Virus record (IMG/VR): IMGVR_UViG_3300028586_000445
Location: 1 to 29,392 of that record
Direction: 5' to 3' (one strand)
Length of the DNA stretch: 29,392 nt
Source: a virus
Taxonomy: Duplodnaviria; Caudoviricetes
Shown: piece by piece, positions 1 through 29,265 of the stretch
Layout: each line of letters begins with the position of its first letter
Position numbering within the stretch: the first letter of the stretch is position 1
Position numbers and translations under genes: made by a program
The notes under the pieces: generated by a model
Database searches by the model: none
Seen by the model: only the letters and a program-made list of their open reading frames with translations
What the model was told of the DNA's origin: nothing

Positions 1-127
1 ATCGCGTCGGCGCGCGCATTTAGGCCGTCGACAACAATCTGAGGTTGCTTGTTCTGGATGGCCGCACCCCACTGTGACAGATCTGAAAGCTGCTGTTTCT
101 GCGCCTCGGCGCTCTTCGTGTCCCAGG
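1..127. repeat. Terminal direct repeat (identical to 29266-29392); circular contig overlap
   Basis: Exact 127-nt identity of both ends; the reading frame continues across the join. Confidence 0.97.
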
Positions 128-374
128 CTTCCTTGAGTTGCTTGCTCATGCCTGGGATCTGCAGCATGGCGTTCGCGTAGTCTTCGCCGCTGGCCGAAGG
201 GTTCGCGATTAGCGACTGGATCACCTGCTGTTGTCGCTGCTGCTGCGCCAGCGCAGCCTGCTGCTGTTGTTGCTGTTGCTGAGCCTGGTTGATGCCGAGG
301 CCCAGCTGGTAACCCTGCAAGACACTCTCGAAGGGGTTGGCGATATTTGGTGGCGCATACTCGATCGGACCCAT
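1..374 (-). CDS. 5' part of origin-spanning phage DNA ejection protein (P22 gp20-like position), 548 aa in total
   Basis: ATG at 374 with GAGG RBS; MGPIEYAPPNIANPFESVLQGYQLGLGINQAQQQQQQQQ... stays open to nt 1 and continues in frame at 29265 into the 27993..29162 ORF. Confidence 0.8.
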   Translation of the reverse strand, partial: MGPIEYAPPNIANPFESVLQGYQLGLGINQAQQQQQQQQAALAQQQRQQQVIQSLIANPSASGEDYANAMLQIPGMSKQLKEAWDTKSAEAQKQQLSDLSQWGAAIQNKQPQIVVDGLNARADA

Positions 375-381
375 TTTTACC

Positions 382-1158
382 TCAGAATTTGAACGACGAT
401 AGATTGGAGGTGAACGCGGACATGTCGATCGGGGCGAAGCCAACCTCCCCTACGCTCGATGCTAGTCCGCTCGACTGGCGCGCGGAGGCGGCAGCGCGGG
501 CCGCGGCCGCGTCGTAGGTCGAGCTCGGGCCAAAACCGCCCAGGCCAGCGAACGTGCCGATACTGCTCCCCAGCGCGTTGTACACCCCGCTCTGTGCCCG
601 TCCTGCTGCAAGAGCATTACCCGCCTGTGCAGCGCCCTGCTGCTGAAGGAGGTTGGATACACTCTGGCCGGTCTGCATGCCTGCGTTGCCGACGCCGGCC
701 GCGGCGTTTTGTCCGAGGGAGGTCAGGCCGCCCAAGTTCGCGTACTGTTGCTCGATCAGCTGGTTGAGCAGCTGCGGCCGGAACTGGCCCAGCGCCGACT
801 GCACATTCCCGCCGCGCAGGCCACCAGTGGCGGATGCGTTTGCTAGGATGGCGTCTTCACCCTGCCGCGCGAGGGCGCTGAACATCGGGGACGACTGAAT
901 GCCGTTGATTGCCGCCTGCTGCGCATCGGCGCCGTTCAGGCCCAGGAGGTTCTGCTGCGCGCCGAGCGAGCCGGTGCCGGCCGTGACGAACGGCGACAGC
1001 AGCCTCTGCACCGTCTCGAACTGTTTGTTTTGCGCGTCGATGCCGAGCTGCGTGGCTCGCTCTTGCGCATTGGACGCGGTGTTGGCCGCCGACCTGGTCG
1101 CGCTCGAAGACAAGAGCGCGCCACCGATTCCTGCACCTACAACTGCTGCTGCCACCAT
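382..1158 (-). CDS. Phage DNA transfer/ejection protein, P22 gp7-like (258 aa)
   Basis: Likely start MVAAAVVGAGIGG after GGAGG; Gly/Ala/Gln-rich; contains the LANASATGGLRGGNVQSAL motif typical of the gp7 family. Confidence 0.85.
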   Translation of the reverse strand: MVAAAVVGAGIGGALLSSSATRSAANTASNAQERATQLGIDAQNKQFETVQRLLSPFVTAGTGSLGAQQNLLGLNGADAQQAAINGIQSSPMFSALARQGEDAILANASATGGLRGGNVQSALGQFRPQLLNQLIEQQYANLGGLTSLGQNAAAGVGNAGMQTGQSVSNLLQQQGAAQAGNALAAGRAQSGVYNALGSSIGTFAGLGGFGPSSTYDAAAARAAASARQSSGLASSVGEVGFAPIDMSAFTSNLSSFKF

Positions 1159-1162
1159 GACG

Positions 1163-1621: not shown

Positions 1622-2190
1622 TTGGAAGTCCTGATGTCGACAATCATGTGGATGCGGTCCCCGGCGCTGTTGTTGATCACCTCATGCTCCTGTGCGTTGT
1701 CGAACCACCAGACCTCGCCAGGCGCCATGTAGGTAGTCTCCTCGCCGGCGCGGAAGTAGACCCCCGGCTGGCTTTGCAGGACGACATGGAAACGGCTGTA
1801 GTAGTCGGTATGGGACTTGGTGTCGACGTGCGGGAAGATCACGCCGCCAGGGGCGATCTTGTTGATCATGACCCGACCCAGGCGCTCCCCGCCGACCCGC
1901 GACATCAACGACATCACGATCGGGCGGGCTTCAGTCAGCAGCTTGTACGCCGGATAGTCGACGTTTTCGTGCTGGTCGTAGGTGCTCAGGTGGTTTTGCA
2001 GCTCTGCCTCGGTCTCGTGCACTGACTTGACGGGGAAGCGCAGCATGATCGACTCGATCTGCTTGAACGGGCCTTGCGGGTAATCGCGGAGGTAGGTGTC
2101 CTCTTTCCAGAGGTCGGGGCGGCGGCGGATCGCCAACAGAAGGGGGGTGACGTCGACGCCTTGCGCGAGCAGGAGGAAATTACGCATCAC
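1618..2190 (-). CDS. Aspartyl/asparaginyl beta-hydroxylase family 2OG-Fe(II) oxygenase
   Basis: PGGVIFPHVD (HxD), GEVWWFDN..EHEVIN, DRIHMIVD motifs. Confidence 0.88.
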   Translation of the reverse strand: MMRNFLLLAQGVDVTPLLLAIRRRPDLWKEDTYLRDYPQGPFKQIESIMLRFPVKSVHETEAELQNHLSTYDQHENVDYPAYKLLTEARPIVMSLMSRVGGERLGRVMINKIAPGGVIFPHVDTKSHTDYYSRFHVVLQSQPGVYFRAGEETTYMAPGEVWWFDNAQEHEVINNSAGDRIHMIVDIRTSK

Positions 2191-2358
2191 ATTCTCCCAA
2201 GGTTAGAAGGGGGTTTGTGAGCCGCTGGGCGCTCGAAACTCAGCTATAGCAAGTAGGTGCCACTAGGTCCAATTATAGCTGTTTCCTATCGTAAACTTAC
2301 TTTTGATAGCTAGACTTAATCGTAATATTGAACTAGAAAATCATTCCATCCGTATCTA

Positions 2359-2718: not shown

Positions 2719-2727
2719 GCGCCCGAT

Positions 2728-3018: not shown

Positions 3019-3104
3019 GTTGCTCCTTCATGTTGTTGTTGTCGTCCCCTCGGCCGGGAACGGTATGCGCTCAGGCGCGAAATGGTCTGGGGTAGCACTG
3101 CGTC

Positions 3105-3246
3105 TTCCTCGCGCGCGCACGCGATGCGTAGGGAAATACCTTCGGCAATCTCAGGTTTTTTCAGGAGGCACGGACCTCGTTCCCTCGCGTACGCGCGCGA
3201 TGTCGGCGGAAAATACCCTCTTGAATGTCAGGTTTTGTCAGGAGGC
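3105..3246. repeat. Imperfect tandem duplication (about 76-77 bp period)
   Basis: CCTCGCG...CGCGATG at 3107 and 3183; AAT[CG]TCAGGTTTT[TG]TCAGGAGGC at 3147 and 3224. Confidence 0.8.
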
Positions 3247-3467
3247 GCACCCTGCAGCTGCAGCCACTGCTCCACCCGTACGAAGTTGTTTTCCGGGGTC
3301 TGCGCATATCCGGCGCGGTGCGCGGCCGCGAGCTGGGTCCAGTATCGAACCATCTCGCCGGGGTTCGCCCTGGTCTGCGCCTTCGCGTCCTCGACGTCCT
3401 CGGTATTCCAGCCGTATAGGTTCGCGAGGTAGGCAAAGTCGCGCAGGAAGCGCTTAGACACCTTCAT
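3228..3467 (-). CDS. Hypothetical protein, paralog of 2359..2718
   Basis: Start overlaps the primase end; conserved motifs shared with the paralog. Confidence 0.75.
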   Translation of the reverse strand: MKVSKRFLRDFAYLANLYGWNTEDVEDAKAQTRANPGEMVRYWTQLAAAHRAGYAQTPENNFVRVEQWLQLQGAPPDKT

Positions 3468-4380
3468 CGGCCCAGTCCTTCCCGACCTGCCTTGGTATCT
3501 GGATCTCGACAGCCAGCCCTTCCTGTACTAACCGGCGTGCTAACCGGTACGCTGCGGCCTGGCCGGTATAGCTCGCATCGTTGTCGCCGGCGATCAGCAC
3601 GCGCTCGACACCAGCCGGCGGAACCCACGATTCCAGCAATGTCGCGTTGGTCGCCGCCCAAACCGGCACACAGAAGCGAATAGAGGCCGCTAGGGCCGTT
3701 TCGATGCCCTCGCTAATGCCGAGCGTCGCCCCAGCCTCCCCAAGCCTCACAGCGCCCGTATTTAGCGGTTTGCCGGCCATGATCTTTTTGGGCTGAGGCA
3801 CCGGCGCTTTCCCTCCATCGTCCGTCAGGTAGGTCCGGTGGATTGATGCGCCGGCGCCGTCCGGGTACTGAATCTTTGCGACCATCGCCGGGAAGCGGCC
3901 CAGGTCGCGGCCATCCTCGTCGGTGTACCTGAGCCCAGGGTGCAAGCGCAGCCCGGCCGGAACCTCCTCGAGGTCGAGCCGGCGGTTCAGGTAGCGCCAC
4001 ACTGGGTCACCTCGTGTTACCTCCCTGCTGCCCTCCCACACCTGCAGGAGCGCGCGCACCTTGCTGGCGTCCGTGCGCTGCGGCGCGATCGGCCCGGCCG
4101 GCACCGTGCCCACGATCCGGTCGATCTGCTTGGCTGCCTCACTGAACGACCAGCCCAGCACGCCCTGAAGCAACTTGAACCCGTCGCCCGAGCCGCAGTG
4201 CGAGCAGATCCAGGTGCCGCGCCCATCCTTATCGTCGAACCGGTACCGATCCTTTCCCGCGCAGATGGGGCAAGGACCATGCTTCTTGCCCAGGTAGGCG
4301 GCATCGATGCCGAGCTGCTGCAGGATGCCGGGCCAGCGGCCGACTGCCTCGTCTGCCGTTTTGGACTTAAGCGCCTGCAT
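3454..4380 (-). CDS. P4-alpha-type Zn-ribbon + TOPRIM DNA primase
   Basis: KHGPCPICAGKDRYRFDD..G.GTWICSHCGSGDG; EGIETALA; IAGDND; GKDWAD. Confidence 0.92.
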   Translation of the reverse strand: MQALKSKTADEAVGRWPGILQQLGIDAAYLGKKHGPCPICAGKDRYRFDDKDGRGTWICSHCGSGDGFKLLQGVLGWSFSEAAKQIDRIVGTVPAGPIAPQRTDASKVRALLQVWEGSREVTRGDPVWRYLNRRLDLEEVPAGLRLHPGLRYTDEDGRDLGRFPAMVAKIQYPDGAGASIHRTYLTDDGGKAPVPQPKKIMAGKPLNTGAVRLGEAGATLGISEGIETALAASIRFCVPVWAATNATLLESWVPPAGVERVLIAGDNDASYTGQAAAYRLARRLVQEGLAVEIQIPRQVGKDWADEGV

Positions 4381-6025
4381 GACGCACCTCCCTGCCCTTC
4401 GCGGCGCGGATCTGCAAGTGCTTGAGGAACCCGGTCACCTCATTGCTCACCGGCGCCGGAATGTCCTGCATACCGCGCGGCCACACCCCGAAGTATTCGC
4501 GGTACTTGTGCGACACCCATCCCGGCTTGTGGCCCTTCTCCTGCGCGATGCCGACCAGCTGGGAGTAGAACTCCTGCTTGTCCATCTTCTGCACCTTGGG
4601 TTTCTTCTTGAGCGGCACCAGGTCGCCGGCGCGGACGCCGACGTTTGCCTTGCGCTCCGGCGCGAAGCCACACACCGGGCACTTGTGCACCGTCTTGACG
4701 TAGCTGCAGGATGGGCAGGCCTTCGGCAGCGGCTTTTCCCGTTCCTCCTGGCCGCCCTTCGCATCCCGCGGCGTGCCGCCGTCGAGCTCGAGCGGGAACT
4801 CGTCGGTCGGGAACCCAAGACGGACGACTGAGCCGGAATGGTCCAGGATCAGTGCTCGGTCTTTGCTGGCGTGCGGGCGCAGCACCCGGCCGGCCATCTG
4901 GATGTAGCGAATCAGGGAGCGCGTCGGGCGCGCGAGGATCAGCGTGCGGCAGGCCGGGAAGTCCCAGCCCTCGGCGAGAATGCCCACGTTCGAGATCACC
5001 ATCGTCTCGCCGGTCTCGACGCGCGCCAGGATCGCGCGGCGCTCCTCCTCGTCGGTGTAGCAGTCGATGTGCTCGGCGCTGACGCCGGCATCGTGGAAGC
5101 GCTGGACGATGTGCTTGCTGTGGGCGATGTTCGCGGCAAAGCACACAGTCGGCGTGCCGGCCGCCAGGCGCAGCCAATGGGTCACGATGTCGCCCACCAG
5201 CTCCGGCTTGTCAGCGGCGCGGCCGACGTCGGCGTCGGTGTAGTCGAGGTCCCCGAACGCGTTGCGGGCCTGCTTGATCCCGGTCATGTCCGGCTCGCTC
5301 GGCGCGTACACGTCCACGTCGACCAGATAGCCGCCGTCGATCAGCTCGGGGATTGTGGCCGCCACCGTCATGTGCTCGAACAGCGGGCCGCCCAGCTCGT
5401 CGTAGTGCTTGCCCAGGCCTCGGGCGTACGGGGTGGCCGACAAGCCAATCACCGGTGTGCCTTTGGCCGCAGCGATGACGGCGCGGTATTCCCTGGAGCC
5501 GGCGACGGTGTGCGCCTCGTCGATGATGATCAGGTCGACTTCCGGCATGCCGCGCCGGGCGATTGTCTGGATGCTCCCCACCAGCACGTTCTCGTAGACC
5601 CTGGCGGTGTTCTCGCCCTGGATAACCCCATGCATAATCCCGGCCTTCGTGAACCGGCGCGAGGTCTGTTCGACCAAGTGCACGCGGTTGCAAAGGAAGA
5701 TCACGCGCTTGTGCTTCGCTCGGGCGCCACGAACCAGGGCCATGCCAATCTCGGTCTTGCCACTCCCGGTGGGGGAGCAGAGCATTTCCCGAACGATCCC
5801 CTCGGCCAGGGCGCGGCGGAGGTTTTGGACCGCGTCGGACTGGTACGGCCGCAGGGTCAGGGCGCCGGAACCGGCATCGCCTTGGCCGGGCGGTTTTGGG
5901 GGTTTAAAGCTATGGCTATGGCTCTGGCTATGGATTGGTTGACCAGTCGTATCACCAGACGAGCACGAAGCGTGCTCCAGCCGTGCGACGTTTCGTGCGT
6001 CAGGAATGGCGGCATCAAGCATCAT
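4367..6025 (-). CDS. Superfamily 2 DEAD/DEAH helicase with C-terminal Zn finger
   Basis: LRPYQ, SPTGSGKT, DEAH, SAT, QMAGRVLR, CPSC..CPVC; ATG at 6025 overlaps the upstream stop (ATGA). Confidence 0.93.
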   Translation of the reverse strand: MMLDAAIPDARNVARLEHASCSSGDTTGQPIHSQSHSHSFKPPKPPGQGDAGSGALTLRPYQSDAVQNLRRALAEGIVREMLCSPTGSGKTEIGMALVRGARAKHKRVIFLCNRVHLVEQTSRRFTKAGIMHGVIQGENTARVYENVLVGSIQTIARRGMPEVDLIIIDEAHTVAGSREYRAVIAAAKGTPVIGLSATPYARGLGKHYDELGGPLFEHMTVAATIPELIDGGYLVDVDVYAPSEPDMTGIKQARNAFGDLDYTDADVGRAADKPELVGDIVTHWLRLAAGTPTVCFAANIAHSKHIVQRFHDAGVSAEHIDCYTDEEERRAILARVETGETMVISNVGILAEGWDFPACRTLILARPTRSLIRYIQMAGRVLRPHASKDRALILDHSGSVVRLGFPTDEFPLELDGGTPRDAKGGQEEREKPLPKACPSCSYVKTVHKCPVCGFAPERKANVGVRAGDLVPLKKKPKVQKMDKQEFYSQLVGIAQEKGHKPGWVSHKYREYFGVWPRGMQDIPAPVSNEVTGFLKHLQIRAAKGREVRHAGA

Positions 6026-6468
6026 GGCCGACCTCCTGAAACCAAGCGCAGCCGCTTTTTCTGTTCCCGGTCGATCGCGATCTGCCTGTTCTTCTCGGCG
6101 ATGACGCGGGATTTGACGATCTCGCCCAGGGCGCGCACGTTGATCAGGCCTCCGACCTCTGTCCACTCAGTGACGACCGCCCGGAGCGGCCGGCGATCCT
6201 CCTCCGACCGGAGGCCCAGCAGCTCGTAAAGCGGTTCCATTTCGGACGGCAAAGGGCGCCAGAACTGGATGGCGATCGAGTCGACGGCGCGGCGCTCAGT
6301 TTCGGCTTCGGCCCGGAGCAGGCGGTAGAGGGCCTTCCGGTTACCGGGCAGCGGCCGGCCGGCGCCGTAGAAGTGGTCCAGCATCAGCCGGTAGGCGCCG
6401 TGTTCGATTACCGTCAGGTGACCGGTGGCGCGGGCATAGTCGCCGAGGAAGTGCTTGTAGAAGTTCAT
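6022..6468 (-). CDS. YdaU/DUF1376 family phage replication-associated protein
   Basis: MNFYKHFLGDYARATGHLTVIEHGAYRLMLDHFY N-terminus. Confidence 0.85.
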   Translation of the reverse strand: MNFYKHFLGDYARATGHLTVIEHGAYRLMLDHFYGAGRPLPGNRKALYRLLRAEAETERRAVDSIAIQFWRPLPSEMEPLYELLGLRSEEDRRPLRAVVTEWTEVGGLINVRALGEIVKSRVIAEKNRQIAIDREQKKRLRLVSGGRP

Positions 6469-6908
6469 GCCGCCTCCAGCTCGAGCTGGCCCTGGTCAGG
6501 CGGATTGATCTTGCGGGGGCCGAGCAGCACATAACGGGCCACACCCTTGTGCAGCAGCCCATCGGGGCCGATGACGTCCTCGGTGAACGTGCAGATGTTC
6601 CACACGTCCTTGAGCTCCATGACGCGCGTGGCGAGGCGCATGTACCCGGCGGCCGTGCCTTCGTAGGTGTTGAGGCCGCGCGGGCCGCGGAACTCCAGCG
6701 CGCGCCGGAGCGTTTCCAGCTGCGAGGCTCCCGAAGTGCTACGAAGCGAAACCCCATTTTGGGAAAGCTCTTCACACACGGCTGTGATACTCTGCGGGCT
6801 GCAGTTGAAGACTGTGGTTTGTTTCGTCGGTCCAGGCCCCCCAGCCCTATCGACACGAGCGCCTCCAGCCCCGGAGGCGTTTTTGTTTTTGCGATCAGGC
6901 ATGCGCAC
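6465..6908 (-). CDS. Winged HTH DNA-binding protein
   Basis: Q...L..ALE.RG..GLNT.E....GYMRLATRV.EL pattern; coupled to neighbours. Confidence 0.7.
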   Translation of the reverse strand: MRMPDRKNKNASGAGGARVDRAGGPGPTKQTTVFNCSPQSITAVCEELSQNGVSLRSTSGASQLETLRRALEFRGPRGLNTYEGTAAGYMRLATRVMELKDVWNICTFTEDVIGPDGLLHKGVARYVLLGPRKINPPDQGQLELEAA

Positions 6909-7095
6909 CTCCGCTCAGGAGGGCCGCGATGTCGTCTGCCGGCCAGGCAAGACGGCCGTTGATGCGCACGGGTTGGACCGGGCCTTTGCCAGTCCAAGCC
7001 CAGCGCTGGACGGTTCTGATTTGGCGGTTCAGTGCCTGCGCTGCCTGAGCGGAAGTCAGGGTGCGCGGCATTTCAGGAAGGTTCGTATCACGCAT
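6895..7095 (-). CDS. AlpA/excisionase-like HTH protein
   Basis: LTSAQAAQALNRQIRTVQRWA..GKGPVQPVRINGRLAW. Confidence 0.85.
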   Translation of the reverse strand: MRDTNLPEMPRTLTSAQAAQALNRQIRTVQRWAWTGKGPVQPVRINGRLAWPADDIAALLSGGAHA

Positions 7096-8114: not shown

Positions 8115-9053
8115 CTACACCCTTGCCCTGCGGAACATCTCCATGGCGGCGCCCGTCTTCTCTTTGAGCACTGCATACCAGGCGCCGGTATTGGCTGTCT
8201 GCGCGCGAAACCGCATGCGGAAGACCCCGTAGAGCTCGGCCGACTTCTGATGGCGATAGACCGGGATCACGTAGTGATGCTGCTCGAGCAGCGCCGTGCC
8301 GCCCTGCAGATTCGCCTCGACGACCTCATAGGCGATGGCGTGAATGGATCGCTCTTCTGGCTCAGGGCCATTTACCGGGAACAAAATCTCAGCATCCGGC
8401 GATTCCGACTCGAACAGGTACGCAGCCTCCTGGAGCAGTCCCATTTCCTTGAGGGTGGCGATCCTTTGGAAGAAGGCATCGGCTCTGTTATCGCCCTTGC
8501 CCAAATGTGCCTTCGTCACATCCGTCGCCCATGAAACCCACGTATTGGCATCGGTGAACCCGAGGTACACCATGCTGCCGACGTCCCGGCAGACTTTCTT
8601 TTCGTACTTGCGGTAGTAGACCTCACGGGAGATGCCGCCATCCGCCGCCAGGTTTTGGGAGTGGTACAGCTCCACGAAAAGCCGCAGGGTCATAACGTCC
8701 TGAGTCTGGCGCAACCGATGGACAATAGGCTCCTCCCCAGCCAAAGGCATGACGACGTTCTTGGGGAGCCAGATCCGGTCCTCGGAGATTTTCAGCTTGT
8801 AACGTGGCCGGGCTTTGGTGGAGGTTTCGGCAGGCGTGACCAGCCCCGCCTTTACCAGCTGCTCAATGGCGGGCTTGGCGCGCTCCCAGCGGATGCCGCC
8901 ATACTCCTGGACCGCATTGGCCGACCAGGCTGTGGTTTGATTGTCGCGGCCAGTGCCGCATGCCAGAACTAGAAAAGCGACGGCCGGATTGAGGCCGATT
9001 TCGCAGGCCTGACGCCATTCGGCCAGCCCAATAGCGAAGAACCCTGTCTTCAT
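8115..9053 (-). CDS. Hypothetical protein with N-terminal wHTH-like region; candidate replication initiator
   Basis: 312-aa ORF; GIRWERAKPAIEQLVKAGLV wHTH-like segment; the phased repeat array follows its stop. Confidence 0.6.
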   Translation of the reverse strand: MKTGFFAIGLAEWRQACEIGLNPAVAFLVLACGTGRDNQTTAWSANAVQEYGGIRWERAKPAIEQLVKAGLVTPAETSTKARPRYKLKISEDRIWLPKNVVMPLAGEEPIVHRLRQTQDVMTLRLFVELYHSQNLAADGGISREVYYRKYEKKVCRDVGSMVYLGFTDANTWVSWATDVTKAHLGKGDNRADAFFQRIATLKEMGLLQEAAYLFESESPDAEILFPVNGPEPEERSIHAIAYEVVEANLQGGTALLEQHHYVIPVYRHQKSAELYGVFRMRFRAQTANTGAWYAVLKEKTGAAMEMFRRARV

Positions 9054-9153
9054 AGCGTTCCCTTAAACGCAGCCCTTAAAAAATAGGAGGCAGTGCCAGG
9101 GTGGTAAGGGAGCCACCTCTTCGCCCGCTAAAGCTAGGCACTGCCGAAAACCT

Positions 9154-10215
9154 TCATGGCCTGAATTTCAAGCCTGAATCGTCGTCATCGACGGCGATGT
9201 GTCTATTCTGCCTTGTGGGAAACAGCTTGTCCTCAAGGAATAAAATGCGCGCCGCCATACGCTTAATTTTCGTGATCGCCTCCTGGAGCTGGCCCTTGAG
9301 GCTGGCGATCGTCTCCATGAATGACCGCTTTTCGGCGGCAAACTCCTGCTCCCTCGCCTTCTCCCGAGCTCGTAACTGCTCGTTCTCCTTGCGCAGTTGG
9401 GCGGCCTCGAGCTCGTGCCGCTTAGCCTCCTCGACCCTCAGGCGCAGATCCTCGATCGCGGCCGCCTGCCGGCGCCGGGAGTGCTGACTGACCACTGCTA
9501 CATTCCGGGCCTGCTCGACCAGGGCGACATGCTCGGCCTGCGCCTCGGCGTGGTCCTCTTCCATCTGTTTGGCCCGGCCGGTAATCCGATCGGCAATGCT
9601 CGGCGCCGGCGGCGCAGGCGCTGCCAGCGTGGGGTTCTTCTGCAGTGCCGCTGCATACTGCTTAGCCGTCGTGTGGATCGCCTTCGAGCCCTCGACGCCG
9701 CGCCGCAGCCCAACAGGCTTACCCACCCGCTCCGCAAAATCGGATTGCATCTCACTCAAGACCTTCCGGCCACCGAGGAAGTCCTTGGCCGCCAGCCGGC
9801 CGTCCTTCGTCAGAGGGACGACATAAGCCACCAGGTGCGGCGATGTCTCGTCCAGTTGCAGGTTCAGGCAGACGACGTTTTCCCTTCCATGCCGTTCGCG
9901 CAGCCAGGCTATGGCGGCGTTGAAGTATTGCCGCTGCGTCTTCCATCGCGTCGCTTTGCACCATTCCGGGCTGGCCGTGATCAGGTACTCGATACACAGC
10001 ACGGCGTTCTTCCGGGGCTTTTCCGGCAACCGGGCCTTGATGGCGTCGCGCACCGCGGCCGATGAATTGGCCCCGCCAGTCCAGTTCAGGTGGGTTCGGC
10101 TCGGGTCCGCGTTCGGCGTTGGGATCTCCCTGAAGGTGTGCATTGCCGACCCGGTGATCGAACCGAACGACGTCAGTTTTTCGGCGCGCAGGATGCAGTA
10201 GGCTGGCTGATTCAT
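9154..10215 (-). CDS. mobV: MOBV (Mob/Pre) relaxase
   Basis: YCILRAEKL, HTFRE..TPNADP, RKNAVLCIEYLITASPEW, DETSPHL motifs and a coiled-coil tail, as in pBBR1 Mob. Confidence 0.92.
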   Translation of the reverse strand: MNQPAYCILRAEKLTSFGSITGSAMHTFREIPTPNADPSRTHLNWTGGANSSAAVRDAIKARLPEKPRKNAVLCIEYLITASPEWCKATRWKTQRQYFNAAIAWLRERHGRENVVCLNLQLDETSPHLVAYVVPLTKDGRLAAKDFLGGRKVLSEMQSDFAERVGKPVGLRRGVEGSKAIHTTAKQYAAALQKNPTLAAPAPPAPSIADRITGRAKQMEEDHAEAQAEHVALVEQARNVAVVSQHSRRRQAAAIEDLRLRVEEAKRHELEAAQLRKENEQLRAREKAREQEFAAEKRSFMETIASLKGQLQEAITKIKRMAARILFLEDKLFPTRQNRHIAVDDDDSGLKFRP

Positions 10216-11693: not shown

Positions 11694-11867
11694 TCAGTTT
11701 GCAGCTGCTGGTTTGCGATCGGCCGCTTCTTCGGCCTGGCGGTTCATCCGCTCGCGCAGTATTGCGACGACCTGGCTGTTCATGGACCGATCGCTGCGCT
11801 TGGCGTCTGACGCGAGCCAGGCTCTGACATCGTCTGGAAGACGCAGCTGAAACTTGATTCCTTGCAT
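11694..11867 (-). CDS. Arc-family ribbon-helix-helix regulator, 57 aa (not in the ORF track)
   Basis: MQGIKFQLRLPDDVRAWLASDAKRSDRSMNSQVVAIL; GGAG RBS. Confidence 0.88.
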   Translation of the reverse strand: MQGIKFQLRLPDDVRAWLASDAKRSDRSMNSQVVAILRERMNRQAEEAADRKPAAAN

Positions 11868-11898
11868 GGTGGTGCTCCGATTGATTTAAGCTGCCTCA

Positions 11899-11982
11899 AC
11901 TATATGGCTCACAGCCATCATGCGCAAGTCTTTTTGATGGCTCAGTGCCATCATTCCATAAATGGCTCATTGCCATTATCCT
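11899..11982. promoter_or_regulatory. Divergent promoters with three ATGGC-N5-GCCAT operators
   Basis: Operators at 11904-11918, 11937-11951 and 11962-11976; leftward TTGCGC-17-TATAGT; rightward TTCCAT-17-TATCCT. Confidence 0.85.
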
Positions 11983-11988
11983 GACCTG

Positions 11989-12246
11989 ATGGAAACTCCC
12001 AAACCAGAGCGCGCGCCTCAGCTCGCCGACAAGTACGTCCTGCGGATGCCCGATGGGATGCGCGACAAAATCGCCGAGCTGGCCAAGGCCAACAACCGAA
12101 GCATGAACGCGGAGATTGTGCTGATCCTGCAACAAGCACTCGATTCCCCCAGGAGCAGCACTGGCGCCGGCGCAAGCATCGACGTCGAGGCTTTGGCTGA
12201 TGCGCTTGCAGCTCGCCTTACCTTGAAGCTAAAAGAAAAATCCTGA
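11989..12246 (+). CDS. Arc/Mnt-family ribbon-helix-helix repressor
   Basis: ADKYVLRMPDGMRDKIAELAKANNRSMNAEIV. Confidence 0.9.
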   Translation: METPKPERAPQLADKYVLRMPDGMRDKIAELAKANNRSMNAEIVLILQQALDSPRSSTGAGASIDVEALADALAARLTLKLKEKS

Positions 12247-12807: not shown

Positions 12808-13512
12808 ATGCCTACCATCGTCTTCGTCTCGCCTAAAGGCGGCGCCGGCAAAACCACATCGGCGCTCGTGCTTGCCGAGCAGCTGGCTCGCAGTACCGAC
12901 GTCACTGTCATCGATGCCGATCCAAACCGGCCGATCGAGAACTGGGCTAAGGGCGGCGCCAAGCCGGAGCGCATGACCGTCGTGGCGGATGCTGATGAGG
13001 AAAACGTAATCGAGCGTATTGAGGAGGCGGCCGCGCGCACGCCCTTCGTCATCGTCGACCTGGAGGGCACCGCGGCCAAGATCGTCGTCATGGCCGTCAG
13101 TCAGGCCGACTTCGTAATCGTTCCGACCCAGGGCAGCCAGCTCGACGCCGAGCAAGCCGGCCGCGCCTTCCGCGTGATCCAGCAGCAGGAGAAGATGGTT
13201 CAGCGCCGGGTGCCGGGGTACCGTCTGCCCTACTCCGTCCTGCTGACGCGCACCAACAGCGCGATCCGCACGCGTACCCTGGCGCACATCGAGAAAGGGC
13301 TCGTCGCCGCCGGCATCCCGGTGTTCGAAACAGAGCTCAACGAGCGCGAGGCCTTCAGGTCCATCTTCTCGTTCCGCAAACCCCTGGCCGGGCTGAACCC
13401 GTCCGAGGTCGCCAACCTGGACAAGGCCGTGGCAAACGCCGAGCAGTTTGCACAGGAGGTCATTGCGGCCCTTCGCAAGGTCCAGCAGCAAGCATCGGAG
13501 GCATCGGTATGA
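12808..13512 (+). CDS. parA: ParA-family partition ATPase (type Ib)
   Basis: SPKGGAGKTT deviant Walker A, IDADPN, IVDLEG; no N-terminal HTH. Confidence 0.93.
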   Translation: MPTIVFVSPKGGAGKTTSALVLAEQLARSTDVTVIDADPNRPIENWAKGGAKPERMTVVADADEENVIERIEEAAARTPFVIVDLEGTAAKIVVMAVSQADFVIVPTQGSQLDAEQAGRAFRVIQQQEKMVQRRVPGYRLPYSVLLTRTNSAIRTRTLAHIEKGLVAAGIPVFETELNEREAFRSIFSFRKPLAGLNPSEVANLDKAVANAEQFAQEVIAALRKVQQQASEASV

Positions 13513-13901
13513 ATGAGCGCGTGAACCCATTTGGCGATCTGGGCGATTTCGCCCCGGCACCGGCCAAGCCCAAAGCGGAGATCCTTGAGGTCGCCAACCA
13601 GGTGGCGGAGCAGCAGGGCTTCCCGAGCCGCCAGCCGGTGAAACCAGCTGCACCTGATGTTGCGCCGGCACCAGCGCCGGCCACGCCGTCGGCGCCAGAA
13701 GTCCCAGCCGCCCAAGCCCAACCGAAAGAGCAGCTCCCGAGCCGGCGCCGCATGACCGGCCGCAGCGAGCAGGTAAACATCAAGACCACCTTCGCGGCCA
13801 AGAAACGGCTGATGGAGATCTCGGTAGAGCGCGATATGCCGCTGGGGGAGATCCTTGAGCAAGCGCTTGAAGCATTAGAAAAGTCTTGGAAGAGTAGCTA
13901 A
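13509..13901 (+). CDS. Small centromere-binding partition protein (ParG-like)
   Basis: Coupled to parA; disordered N-terminus and C-terminal TGRSEQVNIKT...LGEILEQALEAL. Confidence 0.8.
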   Translation: MNERVNPFGDLGDFAPAPAKPKAEILEVANQVAEQQGFPSRQPVKPAAPDVAPAPAPATPSAPEVPAAQAQPKEQLPSRRRMTGRSEQVNIKTTFAAKKRLMEISVERDMPLGEILEQALEALEKSWKSS

Positions 13902-16445: not shown

Positions 16446-16457
16446 AGGGTGCAATGC

Positions 16458-17048
16458 ATGACAAACGCTACTATCCCCGGGGATGACAACGAGCGGGGGA
16501 CGAACGTCACTTTGCCGGTCAAGGGTAAACGCGGCAATCCCACACAAGGATGGTTACAGAGCGATAAGGACTCCCATACGCCCATGTGGCAGCTCGGCAT
16601 CAAATATCCGACAGCCCTGGCGGTGCTTCATTTCATGATTAGCAAGCTGCAGCGAGGTGCGAACGGGCTTGTCATTTCGGCGCCGGCGTTGGCGCGCGCG
16701 ATGGGCATCTCCGAGCGCACTGCGAAGTCGGCCACCGCCGTCCTGCGCGACATGAAGTTTGTGCAAATCCTGAAGTCTGGTAACACCAACGTTTACGTTG
16801 TGAACAGCCGCGTGGCTTGGCAGAGCGCTAGGGGCGCTCGCTTTGCATCCTTCAACGCCCAGATCGTCGTCGACGAGCAAGAACAGCAGCGTACCGTCGA
16901 GGAGCTCGACGCCGAGAGCGCTGAACTCAACGAGGTGCCTCTCATGGAAATCAGCGACGATGGGACCGAGGCGCTCCGTGCGCGAACGCTGGATATTCCC
17001 ATGGCGGAGAAGAAAGACGCGGATAGTCAGGGGACTTTGCCACTCTGA
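16458..17048 (+). CDS. rep: Plasmid replication initiator, pBBR1 Rep-like
   Basis: GWLQSDK.SH..W, PTA..VLH, VIS...LA..MG.S.RT, YVVNSRVAW, F.AQIVVD match pBBR1 Rep motifs as recalled. Confidence 0.85.
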   Translation: MTNATIPGDDNERGTNVTLPVKGKRGNPTQGWLQSDKDSHTPMWQLGIKYPTALAVLHFMISKLQRGANGLVISAPALARAMGISERTAKSATAVLRDMKFVQILKSGNTNVYVVNSRVAWQSARGARFASFNAQIVVDEQEQQRTVEELDAESAELNEVPLMEISDDGTEALRARTLDIPMAEKKDADSQGTLPL

Positions 17049-19810: not shown

Positions 19811-19840
19811 GAAGCCAGGGTTGCCCCCCTGGCTTTTTGC
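19811..19840 (+). terminator. Intrinsic terminator-like hairpin
   Basis: AAGCCAGGG-TTGCCC-CCCTGGCTT followed by Ts. Confidence 0.65.
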
Positions 19841-20189: not shown

Positions 20190-20780
20190 ATGGCAATCTT
20201 CGGATACGGTCGGGTCAGCACAAAGGAACAAACGACGGAAAATCAGCGCCGCGAGATCGAGGTGGCCGGCTACCAAGTCGAATACTGGTATGCCGATGAT
20301 GGCGTGTCAGGGAAGGTGTCAGCGCTGCAGCGTCCGCAGTTCGCGAAGATGCTCGGCCAGATCCGCGATGGGGAAACCCTGGTGGTGACGAAACTCGACC
20401 GCCTCGGCCGTGATGCGCAAGACGTCGGCGCGACGATCAAGATGCTAGCCGGGCGCCGTATCGAGGTCATCGTTCTCCAGCTGGGCAAGCTCGACCTGAC
20501 CAGTGCCGCCGGCAAGCTGATGCTGACGATGCTCGCCGCCGTCGCCGAGATGGAGCGGGATCTGCTGGTGGAGCGCACCCAGTCCGGCCTGGCCCGAGCC
20601 AAGGCTGAGGGCAAGACACTCGGCCGCCCAACGCTGACCACGGATGCCGATCGACGCGCGATCACTGAAGCCCACGCGGCCGGCGTATCGATCAGTACCC
20701 TGGCGCGCATCCACAATCTTTCGCGGGCGACTGTCATGCGGGTCGTGAAGCCGGTCGGCGCCGATGCTACTGCAGGCTAG
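20190..20780 (+). CDS. Serine recombinase (resolvase/invertase family)
   Basis: YGRVST, DGVSG, TKLDRLGR, ERTQSGLARAKAEG..LGRP, C-terminal HTH. Confidence 0.95.
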   Translation: MAIFGYGRVSTKEQTTENQRREIEVAGYQVEYWYADDGVSGKVSALQRPQFAKMLGQIRDGETLVVTKLDRLGRDAQDVGATIKMLAGRRIEVIVLQLGKLDLTSAAGKLMLTMLAAVAEMERDLLVERTQSGLARAKAEGKTLGRPTLTTDADRRAITEAHAAGVSISTLARIHNLSRATVMRVVKPVGADATAG

Positions 20781-22957: not shown

Positions 22958-23530
22958 ATGGACGTGATCCTGGATCGAGAGGAGCTTTACCGTGACGTCT
23001 GGTCGAAAGCTACCGGCATGGTGGCGCGCAAATATGACCTGAGCGAGGGCGAGATACGGAAAGCGTGCTTCGCACTGGATGTGCCAAGGCCTGCCCGAGG
23101 GTACTGGGCGAAACTCAAAACAGGCGATGCGCCTCCAGTTCCCCCACTTCCACCAAGTGGCGCGTCGACGTACGTTTGTAAAGCACCCACACGTCGCCCC
23201 ACGCCTGGCAGGGAGCCCGTCCCGAAGCCGGCCAAGGAGAAGGAGTCGCTTGTCGATTGGGTCCTGAAGAACCGTACAGATCTGCAGGCGAAGGGGCCGG
23301 TTCGCACGCCCCCACCGCCGCACAATTCGATGCACCTCCTACCTGAGGACACGATCGGCCTTCCCAGGTACATACCGATCGCGGCCTGGGCTGAGCTGCT
23401 ACTTGGAGAGCATGCCCCGCACTTCAACACGCTCCGCCGCTGGGTGCACGATGGGATGATCCAGCCGCGGCCAGTAAAGATCGGCAAGCGGTGGTGTGTT
23501 CGGAAGGATGCCGCATACATCCCTGATTAG
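22958..23530 (+). CDS. Two-domain DNA-binding protein with C-terminal excisionase-like domain
   Basis: N-terminal REELY..VWS...RGYWAK; C-terminal PHFNTLRRWVHDGMIQPRPVKIGKRW.V..DAAY. Confidence 0.75.
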   Translation: MDVILDREELYRDVWSKATGMVARKYDLSEGEIRKACFALDVPRPARGYWAKLKTGDAPPVPPLPPSGASTYVCKAPTRRPTPGREPVPKPAKEKESLVDWVLKNRTDLQAKGPVRTPPPPHNSMHLLPEDTIGLPRYIPIAAWAELLLGEHAPHFNTLRRWVHDGMIQPRPVKIGKRWCVRKDAAYIPD

Positions 23531-24661: not shown

Positions 24662-24961
24662 TCAGCCGCCGCAGCGCAGGGCTTCGCCCACGACCGATGC
24701 GCCCTCGGCCCAGTCCGACGAGGTCGACACGACGTAGAAGGCATTGGCGCCGGCGGCCGCGGCTTCGTTTAAGGCAGACTTCATAGCGTTGCCGGGCTTG
24801 TCCGGGCCGAGCCGCTGATTGAAGGTCACCAGTTTGATGGTCTGGCACTTTTCCTTCTGGGCGGCGGTCACGATCTGGACCTTCTGGGCCGCATCGGTGA
24901 GGGGAGTTGCGCACCCTGCCAACAGGGCCAGGGCGGCGCAGATGAGGACGGGTTTCAGCAT
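24662..24961 (-). CDS. Small lipoprotein
   Basis: Signal peptide with lipobox LAGC; GGAG RBS. Confidence 0.8.
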   Translation of the reverse strand: MLKPVLICAALALLAGCATPLTDAAQKVQIVTAAQKEKCQTIKLVTFNQRLGPDKPGNAMKSALNEAAAAGANAFYVVSTSSDWAEGASVVGEALRCGG

Positions 24962-25036
24962 CGGTCGACTCCGGGCAATTTAGAAAGTTGCCACAGTAAC
25001 ACAACAGGTCAACCGACTATTCGACCACCTTGATAG

Positions 25037-25516: not shown

Positions 25517-25518
25517 GG

Positions 25519-27993
25519 CTATTTCTCCGCTCCTGGATGATCCTGGTCTTCGTCTGCTCGCTCCGCCTGCAGCGCCTGCGTCACCCATCGCTGCGAAGCC
25601 GTCCCGTTGCCAGGCATTTTCATGACATGCGCGAAGCGTCGCCATCCGGGTGACTGGACGAAGCGTCGGATCGCATCCTGCTGCTCGGGGCGGACGCCAT
25701 GCGCGGTCCTGCGGGCCAGCTCAGTGAACTCGGGCGACGTCAGAAGCTTGTCGACTGCCTTGATGGCCTCGGGCTTGGCGCCCTTGGCGAGTGCGGAGGC
25801 AAAGGCAGCGCCTACTCCCGGACCTGCGACGGCACCAACGGCAGAACCAACGGTTGCGCCGAGTGCGGACTGTTTGGCGATGCCATAGACCCGTCCGGCG
25901 AAGTGGTCGATCGGCTTCAGCTCGTCCTTGATCGCATTCAGGCGCCCTGTGGTGATGCGCTCGCGCGTGGCGGCGCTGATACCCTTGGAGACGCGGTACA
26001 GGTCGCTGAGCTGCTTGCGCGCCTCGGACGGTAGATGGTGCATGACGGCCGCGTGCGACTGCCTGTTCTTGAGCAGGCCCTCGTACCAGTTCGCGAACTT
26101 GGCGAAGCTGACGTTGCCGTTGGCGGCGGTCTTGCCGAAGGCGGTGTTTAGGCCGGAGGCGACGACCTCCTGGCGCATGCTCTCCGGTACCGCCTTCAGC
26201 AACTTGATAAGCTGGGTTGGATCTCCTGCCGGAAGCGCCTTCATGGCGGTCGACATCTTGCCAACGAACGACTCGTCCAGCTTCTCCCCGAACAGTGCGG
26301 CCAGGTCCTTTTGGATGCCCTTGTAGGTGGCGACTGTTTTCTGAGCGAGATCCCATTTTCCGGCCATGCCGTGCTGCTCGAGCACCGCGCGCTGGTCCTT
26401 CTTCAGCGCGTCCTCGAGCATTGAGATGAGGCGAGTGTCCGAGTCCTTAAAGGGGCCGGCGCGCTGGACACGTGCCGCGGTGAGATCCCGCCTGACGTCG
26501 TCCATCAGCGTGTAGGTCGGATGTTTCAGAATTGCCTTCGGCGCCTCTCCTGCACGCAGAGGCTCGCCCGAGGCAGACAGGATCTGCGGACCCTCCGCTT
26601 TTGGCATTAGCCGGCGGGGCGAGAGCTTCGCCAGGACCATCTTCTCCATGGGGGACAGGTTCTTCATGCCGTCGAGCTCATCGGCGCGCGCCCGGATCAT
26701 CGCCAGCACGTTCTCGGCAGGTGCCTCGGACTTAGCCGGCACAGCGGCTCGAATTTCGTCATACATCCTGTTCGCATGACCTGTGAGCTGGTCGTGCACG
26801 CCGTTCAATTCGTGTTTGACGCTGTCGGCCAGGGTGCTGAAGTCGTGAGTCCCGCCCAACTCCTCGACCAGGTCATTGGCACGCTGCGCGACCCGCTGCA
26901 GGCCCTCCAGTTCGACGGCCCGTCCTTCCGAACCAGGGATCGACTTCGCAGCCTGCGACAGCTCGCGGAAAGCCTGGCTCGTGGTGACGTGATCCGCCTG
27001 CAGGTCTCCATCGACGCCAAGACGTTCCGCCGCTCCGACCACCTTGGAATCGGGCGATGCCTGCTCAGCCAACACCTGTTTTGCCCGGCCACTGCCGAAG
27101 CCGCCCTCGGCTGCCTTACGGGCGGTCTGGGTAAGGTCTTCTGCTGCCATGGGCGCTGCGCCAGGTGCGTCGGCTCCAGGAATGCCAGACGCTGCGCGCG
27201 GCGCCGGACCTTGCGAACCCATTGACGCTGTGCCGGCATCAGTCGCCTCGGTCGCTGCGGCTGCCAGTGGGTCCGCAGCTGCTGTGGGTTTCGGCACGCC
27301 CCGTACGCGCTGCAGGATTTGCTTGGCCGGCGCTGCTGCGGCGCGCACTGCATTGACCACAGCTGGCACGGCGGCGCCGGCGACGCCCGCTGCTGCCACC
27401 TCCCCCGGATTGAACTCCCCGCCGGTGGCTGCCTGGGTCGCCTCGATAGCTGCCTGTGTGCCAGCAGCCCCGAGAGCGGCGCCGCCGAGGGTCGTGGCGC
27501 GGCCGGCTGGAGTGAATGCGGCGATAGCACCGAGAGCGCGCGGCAGGTCGCTGACTTGGAAGCCGGGCTTGATCGCGTACTCCTTGCCGTCGATCGACGA
27601 CTGCAGCAGGTAGTTGCCCTTGTCGTCCTGGCGAGCCTGCACGCCTGGGAAATTCGACTGGATGATCTTGACCGTCTCTGCAGGGTTAGCCAGCAGCGTG
27701 CCCAGACCCGTCTTGGCGCTGGCCATGCTGAAAGAGTTCAGCTCAGGCATGCCGGCCCAGTCTGGCGCCGCGTCGGTTTCGGCAGTATGCCGCTTGTCAC
27801 CAGTGAAGGCTTCCTTGATGTGCCCAGGGAGCGATGCCAGAGTGTCGAACAGGTTATGCCCCTGCTCGGTCTCCGCGGCGGCGTTGGCCGGCAGTGACTT
27901 AATGTAGCCGGCAAGGCGTTGTGCGGCCTTCGTGTCGCCGGCAGCGTCAGCATTGCGCAGCGCCTGGTAGAGCTGTTCGCGGTCAGGCATCAC
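25519..27993 (-). CDS. Large phage DNA transfer/ejection protein, P22 gp16-like
   Basis: 824 aa, Ala-rich helical with hydrophobic Gly/Ala segments; third gene of the gp7-gp20-gp16 triad. Confidence 0.78.
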   Translation of the reverse strand: MMPDREQLYQALRNADAAGDTKAAQRLAGYIKSLPANAAAETEQGHNLFDTLASLPGHIKEAFTGDKRHTAETDAAPDWAGMPELNSFSMASAKTGLGTLLANPAETVKIIQSNFPGVQARQDDKGNYLLQSSIDGKEYAIKPGFQVSDLPRALGAIAAFTPAGRATTLGGAALGAAGTQAAIEATQAATGGEFNPGEVAAAGVAGAAVPAVVNAVRAAAAPAKQILQRVRGVPKPTAAADPLAAAATEATDAGTASMGSQGPAPRAASGIPGADAPGAAPMAAEDLTQTARKAAEGGFGSGRAKQVLAEQASPDSKVVGAAERLGVDGDLQADHVTTSQAFRELSQAAKSIPGSEGRAVELEGLQRVAQRANDLVEELGGTHDFSTLADSVKHELNGVHDQLTGHANRMYDEIRAAVPAKSEAPAENVLAMIRARADELDGMKNLSPMEKMVLAKLSPRRLMPKAEGPQILSASGEPLRAGEAPKAILKHPTYTLMDDVRRDLTAARVQRAGPFKDSDTRLISMLEDALKKDQRAVLEQHGMAGKWDLAQKTVATYKGIQKDLAALFGEKLDESFVGKMSTAMKALPAGDPTQLIKLLKAVPESMRQEVVASGLNTAFGKTAANGNVSFAKFANWYEGLLKNRQSHAAVMHHLPSEARKQLSDLYRVSKGISAATRERITTGRLNAIKDELKPIDHFAGRVYGIAKQSALGATVGSAVGAVAGPGVGAAFASALAKGAKPEAIKAVDKLLTSPEFTELARRTAHGVRPEQQDAIRRFVQSPGWRRFAHVMKMPGNGTASQRWVTQALQAERADEDQDHPGAEK

Positions 27994-29265
27994 TAGTTCC
28001 CATACTTGTTGAGGAGGTAATCGATATCGGCGGGATGTGCTGACGCGGACTTTGCCGGCTTCGTCGCCGCCGTGCTTGTACGTTCGCCCGCTCCCTTGCC
28101 CGTGAGGAGCGCGCGCGCGGCCGGCGACAGCATCGTGTCGTCGAAGTCTTTCAGGCCGGTACTGCGTTCGTAGCTGCGCTTTTTCTCCTTCAGGCGGCCG
28201 CCGAACAGCTCCTGCGCAGTGCCGACGGCGCCCAGTACCTGTTCGGGCGAGTAGGTGCCGTCCCCGGCCAGCGCTGCAGCAGTGTGGTTCCGGTCTTCGC
28301 CGGTGCCACCGACCCCGGACACGGCCTTAACCACCTCGGGCGCGACCATCTGCACGGCCACCTTCAGGTTCGATGGCGCAGCCCCGCCGGTGGCTTCCGA
28401 GATCCTGTTCGCGATCTTGTTAAACAGCCGGGTATCTCCGTTCTTCTGGGCGAGGGCCAGCTCCTTCAGCGTCGCGAGGTGGTTCATGGCAGTATTGGCC
28501 GACTCGATCGCCGAGCCATCCTTGCCGCCGGCTGCGAACGAGCGCAGCGCGGCGGCCCGCGGCGCGTACTGAGCTGCGTCGTACTGCGGGTTGAGCTGCA
28601 TGACCATGTCCATGGTCGCCTGGCCCCATGGCTTGTTCATGTTGAACTGGCCGAGCGGCGGCGCGCGGTAGAACGCGATCTGCTTGGCCAGCGTCTCGTT
28701 CGGCTTCGCCGGTGCATCGGCAGCCTTCTGCTCCTCGACCCACTCGGAGTGGCGGATGTCCTGGCCTCGGCGCAGCGTATTGGCCGACAGCGTCGCATCG
28801 GCGCTCGGCGTGGTAAACGCCTTCTGGTCTTTCGGGGTCATGCCAGCGTCGCGGAGCTGGCCCAGATACGTGGGAAGTTCTTTCGGATCGGCCGGCATGC
28901 CGTCGATATACTCCTGCGCGCCGCCCTTCGGGATGAAGCCGCGCGCCTCCATCGTCTTGAACATGGTGATTGCCTGCACTGTCTTCACACCGGGCTTTGC
29001 GATCGAGCCTGCTGCCTGCGCGAAGACGCCGTAATTCTTCACGGCCTGCTCGATCTTTTCGCCTGATACCTTCGAGTCGGACTCGGTCTGATCGCGCACG
29101 TTCTTGTCGAGCGCAACGGTGTTGTCGATAACCGCTTTACCCTGTGGGTGCACGACCAGCATTGAATTGATAAGGACCCTGGCGAAATCAGGATTTTCCT
29201 TGACTGCCTGTGCCTTGGCACGCAGTGCCTTAGACTCAGGGGTAGTACCACCGGCCGAGTTTTCG
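27993..29265 (-). CDS. 3' part of origin-spanning DNA ejection protein (gp20-like)
   Basis: 374+1273 nt = 549 codons; Ala/Gln-rich helical protein lying between the gp7-like and gp16-like genes. Confidence 0.78.

Follow-up and report, generated by a model that had tools for sequence, protein, structure and literature searches.

A circular, integrase-less satellite-like element with P22-type ejection genes, and its island and circular relatives

Background

Known phage satellites steal or resize the heads of their helpers, redirect packaging or swap the tape measure, and the replacement of the internal ejection proteins of short-tailed phages has been hinted at by EcCIMP1, a phage-inducible chromosomal island (PICI) of E. 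coli MP1 that is transduced by the P22-related phage Kapi1 (PMC11773190). Here we analyze a DNA stretch of 29,392 nt, the IMG/VR record IMGVR_UViG_3300028586_000445 (the whole stretch is referred to as the window), which carries a set of P22-type ejection genes followed by a small terminase gene (terS), and which belongs, as a circle without integrase, to a family of PICI-like elements from Massilia and related Burkholderiales.

As far as EcCIMP1 is described in that report, it resembles the window in being capsid-less, in having DNA-transfer-type genes downstream of the primase and in its P22-like class of helper; it also has a phrog_651/DUF2824 gene, and one relative of the window (the circle G498) has a phrog_651 gene before gp7. 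EcCIMP1 differs in that it resides at tRNA-Thr, needs an integrase and AlpA, and has no terminase gene identifiable in the published description, whereas the window is an integrase-less circle with ParA, a MobV relaxase and terS, from a Burkholderiales family (the two backbones were compared by description). The gp16 homolog of the window matches phage Kapi1 at 25%. The portions of PMC11773190 that deal with the DNA-transfer genes of EcCIMP1 report no test of their function.

The plasmid form is known from PISP (11.1 kb) and cf-PISP (15.8 kb), satellite-plasmids of Vibrio crassostreae, which their description (PMC13230959) places only in Vibrio. Like the window they are described as circular and integrase-less, with ParA and Rep, a small terminase and a PICI-derived gene set; unlike the window, which measures 29 kb and has no capsid gene, they encode capsid proteins, and the passages that describe them do not mention ejection genes. 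Satellites with their own genome-delivery part, another likeness to the window, are described in reports on PLE11 of Vibrio cholerae, whose virions contain the PLE's own tape measure (PMC12987554), and on the SUSP1 'F5' satellites, where the tape measure is satellite-encoded (10.64898/2026.10.15.759431). Tape measures also occur on the backbone of the window's family (G488, L145, L377). PLE11 and SUSP1 are described as integrated and as using long-tailed helpers, whereas the window has the short-tailed counterpart, internal ejection proteins. An earlier interpretation of the window, made from its letters alone (the sequence-only reading), knew of no satellite family defined by this module on a plasmid backbone; each half does have a precedent, in the DNA-transfer genes of EcCIMP1, the plasmid form of PISP and cf-PISP and the tape measure of PLE11. 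What is new is the plasmid form together with a swappable delivery slot, in a Burkholderiales family with both island and plasmid members. A search of the open-licence PMC and bioRxiv literature brought up neither a plasmid satellite carrying ejection genes nor this family from Massilia.

Results and discussion

A closed circle without shell genes

The sequence-only reading took the record for a closed circle, and this proved correct: the two ends of the window are identical over 127 nt, which leaves a circle of 29,265 bp, and a contig of 8,142 nt, from a run that was assembled separately, bridges the origin (1-3853 plus 24977-29392).
29266..29392, no strand: assembly overlap of 127 nt, identical to 1-127

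The confirming run is possibly the source of the window, and is counted as a second assembly, not as a second sample. Read depth along the window (run X1, a leaf-litter metagenome) is mostly 20-35x, and the 548-aa gp20-like protein encoded across the origin is present, whole and identical, on a record from a 29,406-nt contig. No tRNA was found in the window, and no PLSDB plasmid matched the DNA of the operon described below. A misassembly of a full P22-like prophage with a plasmid, which the sequence-only reading named as fatal to its interpretation, might be argued from the metagenomic origin of the DNA and from the possible identity of the confirming run with the source sample. It is already contradicted by the origin-spanning contig, by the even depth, with no well-supported joint listed, and by the equal layout of the relatives L043, G499, L371 and G488 (see below), and we give it practically no credence.

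No capsid, portal, large terminase (TerL), tail or lysis family was identified among the 44 main open reading frames (ORFs) and 73 overlapping ORFs of at least 90 aa (117 in all), and tblastn with 36 structural, terminase, lysis and integrase queries (E<=1e-3) returned only the window's own terS. The tyrosine integrase family PF00589 is absent from all six frames, and neither the integrase nor the attachment (att) sites of L043, the nearest relative, have a match in the window. The absence of shell, lysis and integrase genes claimed previously is thus borne out, with the qualification that a small serine resolvase gene and excisionase-like genes are present.

The ejection operon

Six genes, all on the minus strand, are separated by gaps of -4, 7, 7, -1 and 2 nt and have intact reading frames; the operon runs through the origin of the circle. 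The features are:
2190-1618, minus strand: Asp/Asn beta-hydroxylase-like gene, first of the operon (PF05118, E 5e-17)
1621-1163, minus strand: GNAT acetyltransferase, in the position of P22 gene 14 (PF00583, phrog_1249)
1155-382, minus strand: gp7-like ejection protein (PF25688, E 2e-12; phrog_598, E 7e-38)
1..374, minus strand: gp20-like ejection protein, N-terminal part, frame open through the origin
27993..29265, minus strand: gp20-like ejection protein, C-terminal part (all-helical model, mean predicted local distance difference test, pLDDT, 73)
27993-25519, minus strand: gp16-like ejection protein without a transglycosylase domain (phrog_770 'DNA transfer protein', E 3e-27; phrog_6704)
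25516-25037, minus strand: small terminase terS, Sf6 type (PF20901, E 1e-9; phrog_1482)
24662..24961, minus strand: small lipoprotein-like gene after the operon (DUF4156, below cut-off)
2174..2295, minus strand: non-coding operon leader (77% DNA match to L043; motif shared with L001, L003 and L004)

The tightly coupled operon recognized by the sequence-only reading is confirmed, with family matches for all genes but gp20, which is assigned by position and homology. The gp20-like assignment is the weakest call in the operon: the window protein has no passing Pfam or PHROG match of its own, and the call rests on its position, on homology to the gene that follows gp7 in full phages, on phrog_917 in relatives (matched by the gp20-like gene of L043 and by one of nine further proteins scanned) and on an Atlas lead to PF16928. 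The gp7-like protein is 32% identical to P22 gp7 and 64-66% identical to gp7 of two prophages of the Massilia genus; as PF25688 misses gp7 genes found by phrog_598, gp7 counts obtained with Pfam are lower bounds. P22 gp20 and gp16 gave no BLAST match to window proteins. The terS profile matches solved chains named 'Gene 1 protein / terminase small subunit' (E 3.5e-6); no solved structure matched the gp16 or gp20 profile. The gp16 model is poor (mean pLDDT 55), and fold searches with the gp16 and gp20 models returned mostly unnamed phage proteins at TM scores <0.4; neither was used as evidence.

The hydroxylase is 55-63% identical to its counterpart in some full phages and 80-81% in others. The GNAT gene, 75-77% identical in full phages, lies directly before gp7 in PfAn1 and other phages, and the gene at its place in G498 matches both phrog_651 and phrog_1249. 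Hydroxylase (1618-2190) and acetyltransferase (1163-1621) stand together directly before gp7 in many P22-like phages; the two enzymes may modify ejection or virion proteins. The lipoprotein-like gene, 75 nt from the window terS, has counterparts at equivalent positions in G499 (87%) and L371 (89%).

A motif with complementary halves precedes the hydroxylase start in elements and phages (window 2190-2255, minus strand; L043:8150-8225; L001:5625-5705; L003:6022-6102; L004:5838-5915), and could be a regulatory leader. Its consensus RNA fold is weak (-7.5 kcal/mol; double change in 2 of 12 pairs), and no RNA is claimed.

Islands, circles and a swappable slot

The nearest relative, L043, is an 18.9-kb island in a Massilia metagenome-assembled genome (MAG), flanked by 55-bp repeats at tRNA-His. 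It encodes a tyrosine integrase, a helicase (86%), a primase (79%), gp20-like and gp16-like proteins (the latter 84% identical to that of the window), a resolvase and an excisionase, and has no shell genes. Read as a circle, its gene order resembles that of the window, which would have gained mob and par and lost the integrase. The int-alpA RNA motif, the only Rfam match in the window, is retained there though the integrase is gone.

Three other elements (G499, G498 and G488) are circles with terminal repeats and a ParA 87-98% identical to that of the window, and match neither PF00589 nor any structural query. G499 (22.1 kb) has the hydroxylase (81%), GNAT (76%), gp7, a gp20-like gene and a gp16-like gene of another allele, with no terS. 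G488 (23.4 kb), contig C7 of the Massilia-genus genome G050, combines a primase-helicase of the window type with a tape measure in the slot occupied by the ejection genes in the window; it also has DUF6651 and neck-like genes. G498 (18.0 kb) and G499 replicate with DnaB and another Rep instead of the primase-helicase; the differing initiators of the related circles (432-aa Rep, DnaB) suggest that the replicon is swapped often.

The viral contigs L142, L143, L144, L147 and L364 have the primase-helicase followed by ejection-type genes, and L145 has it followed by a tape measure. The tape measures found in the slot (phrog_24 or phrog_28) are:
L146:11265-16619: 1785 aa (G488)
L145:12705-18038: 1778 aa
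L377:10076-11932: 619 aa

A 79-aa gene after the primase serves as a marker of the backbone. It was found in 17 of 401 genomes of G001's family, the nine closest homologs being 57-83% identical. Among these nine, G001 has gp20 and gp16 after the backbone; G114 (L371) has an integrase, hydroxylase (84%), GNAT (75%), gp7, two large genes, a DUF5681-type small gene and the lipoprotein (we take DUF5681 proteins to be small terminases); the large genes of G361 and G234 match phage-locus proteins, some of them at the position of ejection genes; G285 has a tape measure, and G142 an unassigned 661-aa gene at the contig end. The eight more distant marker genomes (37-50%), which include a locus with TerL, portal and capsid (L379) and apparent phages, were not counted as family. 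From these comparisons, the slot appears to hold a P22-type ejection set, a tape measure, or nothing.

Protein look-ups revealed that the locus tags of gp20, gp16 and terS follow each other directly in Massilia sp. Root133 (ASD28_13080/13085/13090) and nearly so in CT11-108 (00460/00465/00475). Homologs of gp20, gp16 and terS (85-95%) share contigs of 658,797, 21,517 and 9,055 nt, and gp16 and terS also one of 25,951 nt. The recurrence of the synteny, which the sequence-only reading proposed as a check, is supported by gp20-gp16-terS in Root133 and CT11-108 and by the operon as it stands in G499, with no terS, and in L371, with another small gene instead of terS. A second gp16 allele (A3) can be aligned to the window gp16 over 27 columns only; its assignment rests on where it lies in Massilia-genus prophages and in phage AH02. 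In an island of another capsid-less type, from a Burkholderiales MAG (L050:7266-12481), a tyrosine-integrase-like gene stands almost directly before a single gp16-like gene, which encodes 1146 aa including a transglycosylase domain and is followed by small genes.

Phage origin of the operon and the position of terS

Loci seeded with gp16 (n=127, leaving out the window's own record and two annotated records) have phage structural genes in 115 cases; in eight of these, which do not all represent separate phages, hydroxylase, GNAT and gp7 are present as well. The remaining 12 loci, with no structural match, comprise two integrase islands (L043, L050), one different phage context and nine fragments of <=8.2 kb. 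In PfAn1 (PV364321.1) the five-gene block lies within a normal P22-like late operon. Since hydroxylase-GNAT-gp7-gp20-gp16 occurs intact in full P22-like phages, five of the six operon genes represent one phage block, acquired from such phages, with only terS out of phage order. PfAn1, G495 and the prophages of G056, G108 and G034 are like the window in the five-gene block and are the source of its terS family; unlike it, they encode TerL, portal, scaffold, coat, gp4, gp10, tail and lysis proteins, and their terS is located far upstream.

The window terS has no match in any of the 127 loci, within the DNA examined for each, and it is missing from L043, G498, G499 and G488, while L143, L147 and L371 have other small genes instead. 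Its place after the operon is the ordinary PICI place, and the gene is optional. The proposal of the sequence-only reading that terS was moved to the end of an ejection operon is accordingly not supported in that form: the element did not put the operon together, as the block exists intact in full phages, and terS is optional and stands where PICIs usually have it. A scan of viral contigs for terS found only four full-phage loci, and one for Mob found none. Among plasmid records matching gp16 (7) or gp7 (3), both that were opened, NZ_CP104216.1 and NZ_CP061617.1, proved to be whole phages. In a metagenome scan, the matches were the record of the window itself and 79 loci at a greater distance.

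Selection and phylogeny

Between the window and L043 the ratio of nonsynonymous to synonymous substitution rates (dN/dS) is 0.118 for gp16, 0.131 for the helicase, 0.185 for the primase and 0.081 for a 312-aa gene of the backbone, with dS of 0.71, 0.67, 0.75 and 0.58, respectively. The dS of gp16 falls within the backbone range (0.58-0.75), which argues for an equally long stay of gp16 and the backbone in the element. Hydroxylase and GNAT, compared with L144, gave 0.16 and 0.18. These tests cover gp16, hydroxylase, GNAT and backbone genes; gp7, gp20 and terS are without close DNA. Among 53 gp16 proteins placed in a quick tree, that of the window belongs to a clade of 11 rows (SH-aLRT support 100), whose members lie on contigs of 6.7-29 kb or of chromosome size and none on a 38-43 kb contig. 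The earlier claim of selection rather than decay, for which dN/dS had been named as the check, holds for gp16, which is under purifying selection; the low hydroxylase and GNAT values may stem from phages.

Class membership and candidate helpers

PICIs are described as having five core components (PMC10085698). The window has the primase-replicase module (6022-3454) and the small terminase and, as expected of a PICI, no tail or lysis genes; an integrase with chromosomal att sites and a capsid morphogenesis gene are lacking. As candidate regulators it has HTH_17/phrog_66 genes (6895-7095, 24010-24396), with MerR below cut-off and no AlpA family match shown. The integrase is present in the relatives L043, L142, L145, L371 and L374. 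With PISP the window shares circularity, the lack of an integrase, ParA and Rep, and lacks capsid protein E and the head maturation protease; with EcCIMP1 it shares DNA-transfer genes downstream of the primase and the absence of shell genes, and is not integrated. It has no capsid, portal and TerL of its own, as a capsid-forming PICI, a P22-like prophage or a phage-plasmid would. The window would work like a PICI but is not one.

Phages of the helper class assumed by the sequence-only reading do exist in the Massilia genus, as P22-like prophages with gp7 in 3 of 110 genomes (G056, G108, G034). In G056 and G108 portal, scaffold and coat are preceded by a homolog of the window terS, and G495, a complete 42.9-kb phage, has the whole five-gene block and a terS 49% identical. 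PF20901 is unmatched in four of five such phage records, which suggests that helpers use several terS families.

Proposed life style and alternatives

We propose, with a probability of about 0.6, that the element is a satellite-plasmid packaged by a P22-like helper, which it would load with its own injection proteins. The underlying suggestion of a capsid-less satellite-like element with ejection genes is supported by the absence of shell genes and the purifying selection on gp16. The RepL-like protein, the resolvase and ParA with its partner would maintain the element as a plasmid. Upon induction of, or infection by, a helper, the primase-helicase would amplify the element and the ejection operon would be switched on. 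The element's TerS with the helper's TerL would then start headful packaging on element DNA, a head of ~40 kb holding ~1.4 circles; relatives without terS would rely on the helper TerS. Element gp7, gp20 and gp16 would enter helper procapsids, replacing or mixing with those of the helper, and upon infection would build the trans-envelope channel. Tape-measure relatives would act likewise with long-tailed helpers.

Such a channel is indeed built by the P22 ejection proteins (10.64898/2026.09.03.749273; PMC10883804), and according to the portions of the latter report that concern exclusion, SieA blocks it, escape mutations fall in genes 16 and 20, and P22 hybrids with foreign ejection genes are viable and partly SieA-resistant. 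The most likely gain to the satellite would be entry into cells whose helper-type prophage excludes the helper's ejection proteins (SieA-type exclusion); as such lysogens are the cells where a satellite can be mobilized again, it would gain most by entering them. This escape from exclusion is the least supported step of the proposal.

Several observations weigh against the satellite-plasmid proposal. L043 has no hydroxylase, GNAT, gp7 or terS, although the hydroxylase leader and start are kept there, which indicates that these four genes were deleted; G498 has only a gene-14-like gene (phrog_651) and gp7, without gp20 and gp16; and three of the nine close genomic relatives (G004, G245, G169) have no large gene in the slot. 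Root133 and CT11-108, known from protein look-ups, may or may not have shell genes. For hydroxylase and GNAT the identity to full phages is as high as that to other elements, so that the low dN/dS of both genes may reflect time in phages, and the gp16 of G499 is 70-85% identical to full-phage proteins. Ejection proteins enter procapsids before DNA, so helper genomes would receive the element's proteins as well. The Mob relaxase offers an alternative route of transfer, and the only public run with window DNA is a bulk metagenome.

The partial sets, which are intact (gene-14-like and gp7 in G498, gp20 and gp16 in L043) and hard to read as a whole private channel, could instead point to interference as the primary role: the element's proteins, loaded into helper heads, would form mismatched channels, cut helper infectivity and so protect the host population, transfer being secondary. 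EcCIMP1, as reported, gives some immunity to its helper and is transduced at a low rate (PMC11773190). Yet the window, G499 and L371 have the complete coupled set, foreign ejection proteins are described as supporting, not poisoning, infection by P22 hybrids (PMC10883804), and terS with the primase-helicase block points to packaging, so that we consider a primary role in interference unlikely, if the best placed of the alternatives. Ranked below it, and likewise unlikely, is a mere passenger, a conjugation-mobilized plasmid derived from a PICI-like island that gains and loses late-gene blocks of resident prophages. This would agree with a MobV relaxase above its NCBIfam cut-off, with near-identical blocks in full phages, with empty or reduced slots and with gp16 and gp20 alleles that differ between members. 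However, purifying selection has acted on gp16 while it diverged in step with the backbone, none of the six frames is disrupted, and the slot of close relatives contains only delivery genes (ejection set or tape measure) and no coat, portal or tail spike. Moreover, the relaxases of the window (9154-10215), L259 and L260 all read QLDETSPHL in the metal-binding motif, with Q where we take H to be usual in MobV.

Finally, terS could be the left-over start of a terS-terL-head cassette, and the window a deletion product of a larger capsid-forming element with permuted gene order. This is suggested by L143 (9461-10116), where primase, gp20-like and gp16-like genes and a terS (phrog_309) are followed at the contig end by a 55-aa frame that to us resembles the start of TerL, and by the TerL, portal and capsid genes of the distant marker locus L379. 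But no tool calls the L143 fragment TerL (Atlas scores of ~0.8 are uninformative), the L143 terS belongs to another family, and in the window only 75 nt separate terS from the lipoprotein gene, a gene that comes after the operon in G499 and L371 as well; we regard such a relic as quite improbable.

More broadly, and with somewhat less than even confidence, we suggest that the family switches between island and plasmid and swaps its delivery cassette to match the helper (an ejection set for short-tailed, a tape measure for long-tailed helpers), and that the cassette rebuilds the entry channel of stolen particles past the exclusion set up by helper lysogens. If true, satellites would have one more general strategy, the replacement of the entry machinery, alongside the resizing of capsids and the redirection of packaging. 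One backbone offers natural controls: the window with the full set and terS, G499 with the full set without terS, L043 with gp20 and gp16, G498 with gene 14 and gp7, and G488 with a tape measure. The island and plasmid forms, and cultured Massilia carriers present in databases, make both re-equipped virions facing superinfection exclusion and the step from integrative satellite to plasmid testable. Satellite searches anchored on an integrase would pass over such circles, which lack both integrase and capsid.

Replication, maintenance and cargo genes

The remaining features of the circle are:
3228..3467, minus strand: 79-aa gene after the primase, the family marker
3454..4380, minus strand: primase with zinc ribbon and Toprim (PF08273, PF13362, phrog_510; 79-85% in relatives)
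4367..6022, minus strand: DEAD-type helicase (PF04851, PF00271, phrog_16; 81-86% in relatives)
6022..7095, minus strand: DUF1376 gene, unknown gene and HTH_17 regulator, head of the replication block
8115..9053, minus strand: 312-aa unknown gene (92% in L043, 75% in G488)
9073..9144, minus strand: int-alpA RNA motif (Rfam RF02996; 58.1 bits, gathering threshold 35.8)
9154..10215, minus strand: MobV-family relaxase (PF01076; NF041497, 155 bits, cut-off 100)
11694..12246, no single strand: two divergent Arc-like regulators (PF03869)
12808..13901, plus strand: ParA and small partner gene (PF01656, phrog_164)
16449..17048, plus strand: RepL-like replication protein (PF05732, just below cut-off; 36-39% to plasmid RepL/HTH proteins)
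20190..20780, plus strand: small serine resolvase (PF00239, E 6e-39; 84-96% in relatives)
22958..23530, plus strand: excisionase-like gene (PF07825, phrog_629; 76-77% in L043 and G488)

ParA shares ~70% identity with its counterparts on named proteobacterial plasmids. The parA-partner pair is flanked by repeats that have a GGTACC/AGTACC core (12692-12761, 13897-13929, 14481-14548) and are candidate partition sites, and the RepL-like gene lies between the repeats 16268-16351 and 17044-17079. Together with it (16449-17048, plus strand), a gene at 22058-22690 (minus strand) makes two replication-initiator-like genes beyond the primase-helicase block. PADLOC gave only weak matches, at 22058-22690 and 18562-19491; the latter (minus strand) encodes a TIGR02391 protein with weak similarity to PD-Lambda-3_B and Aga_HEPN, and is possibly anti-phage cargo. 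Low-GC (45-48%) cargo with unknown genes lies at 13971-15705 and 19500-20100.

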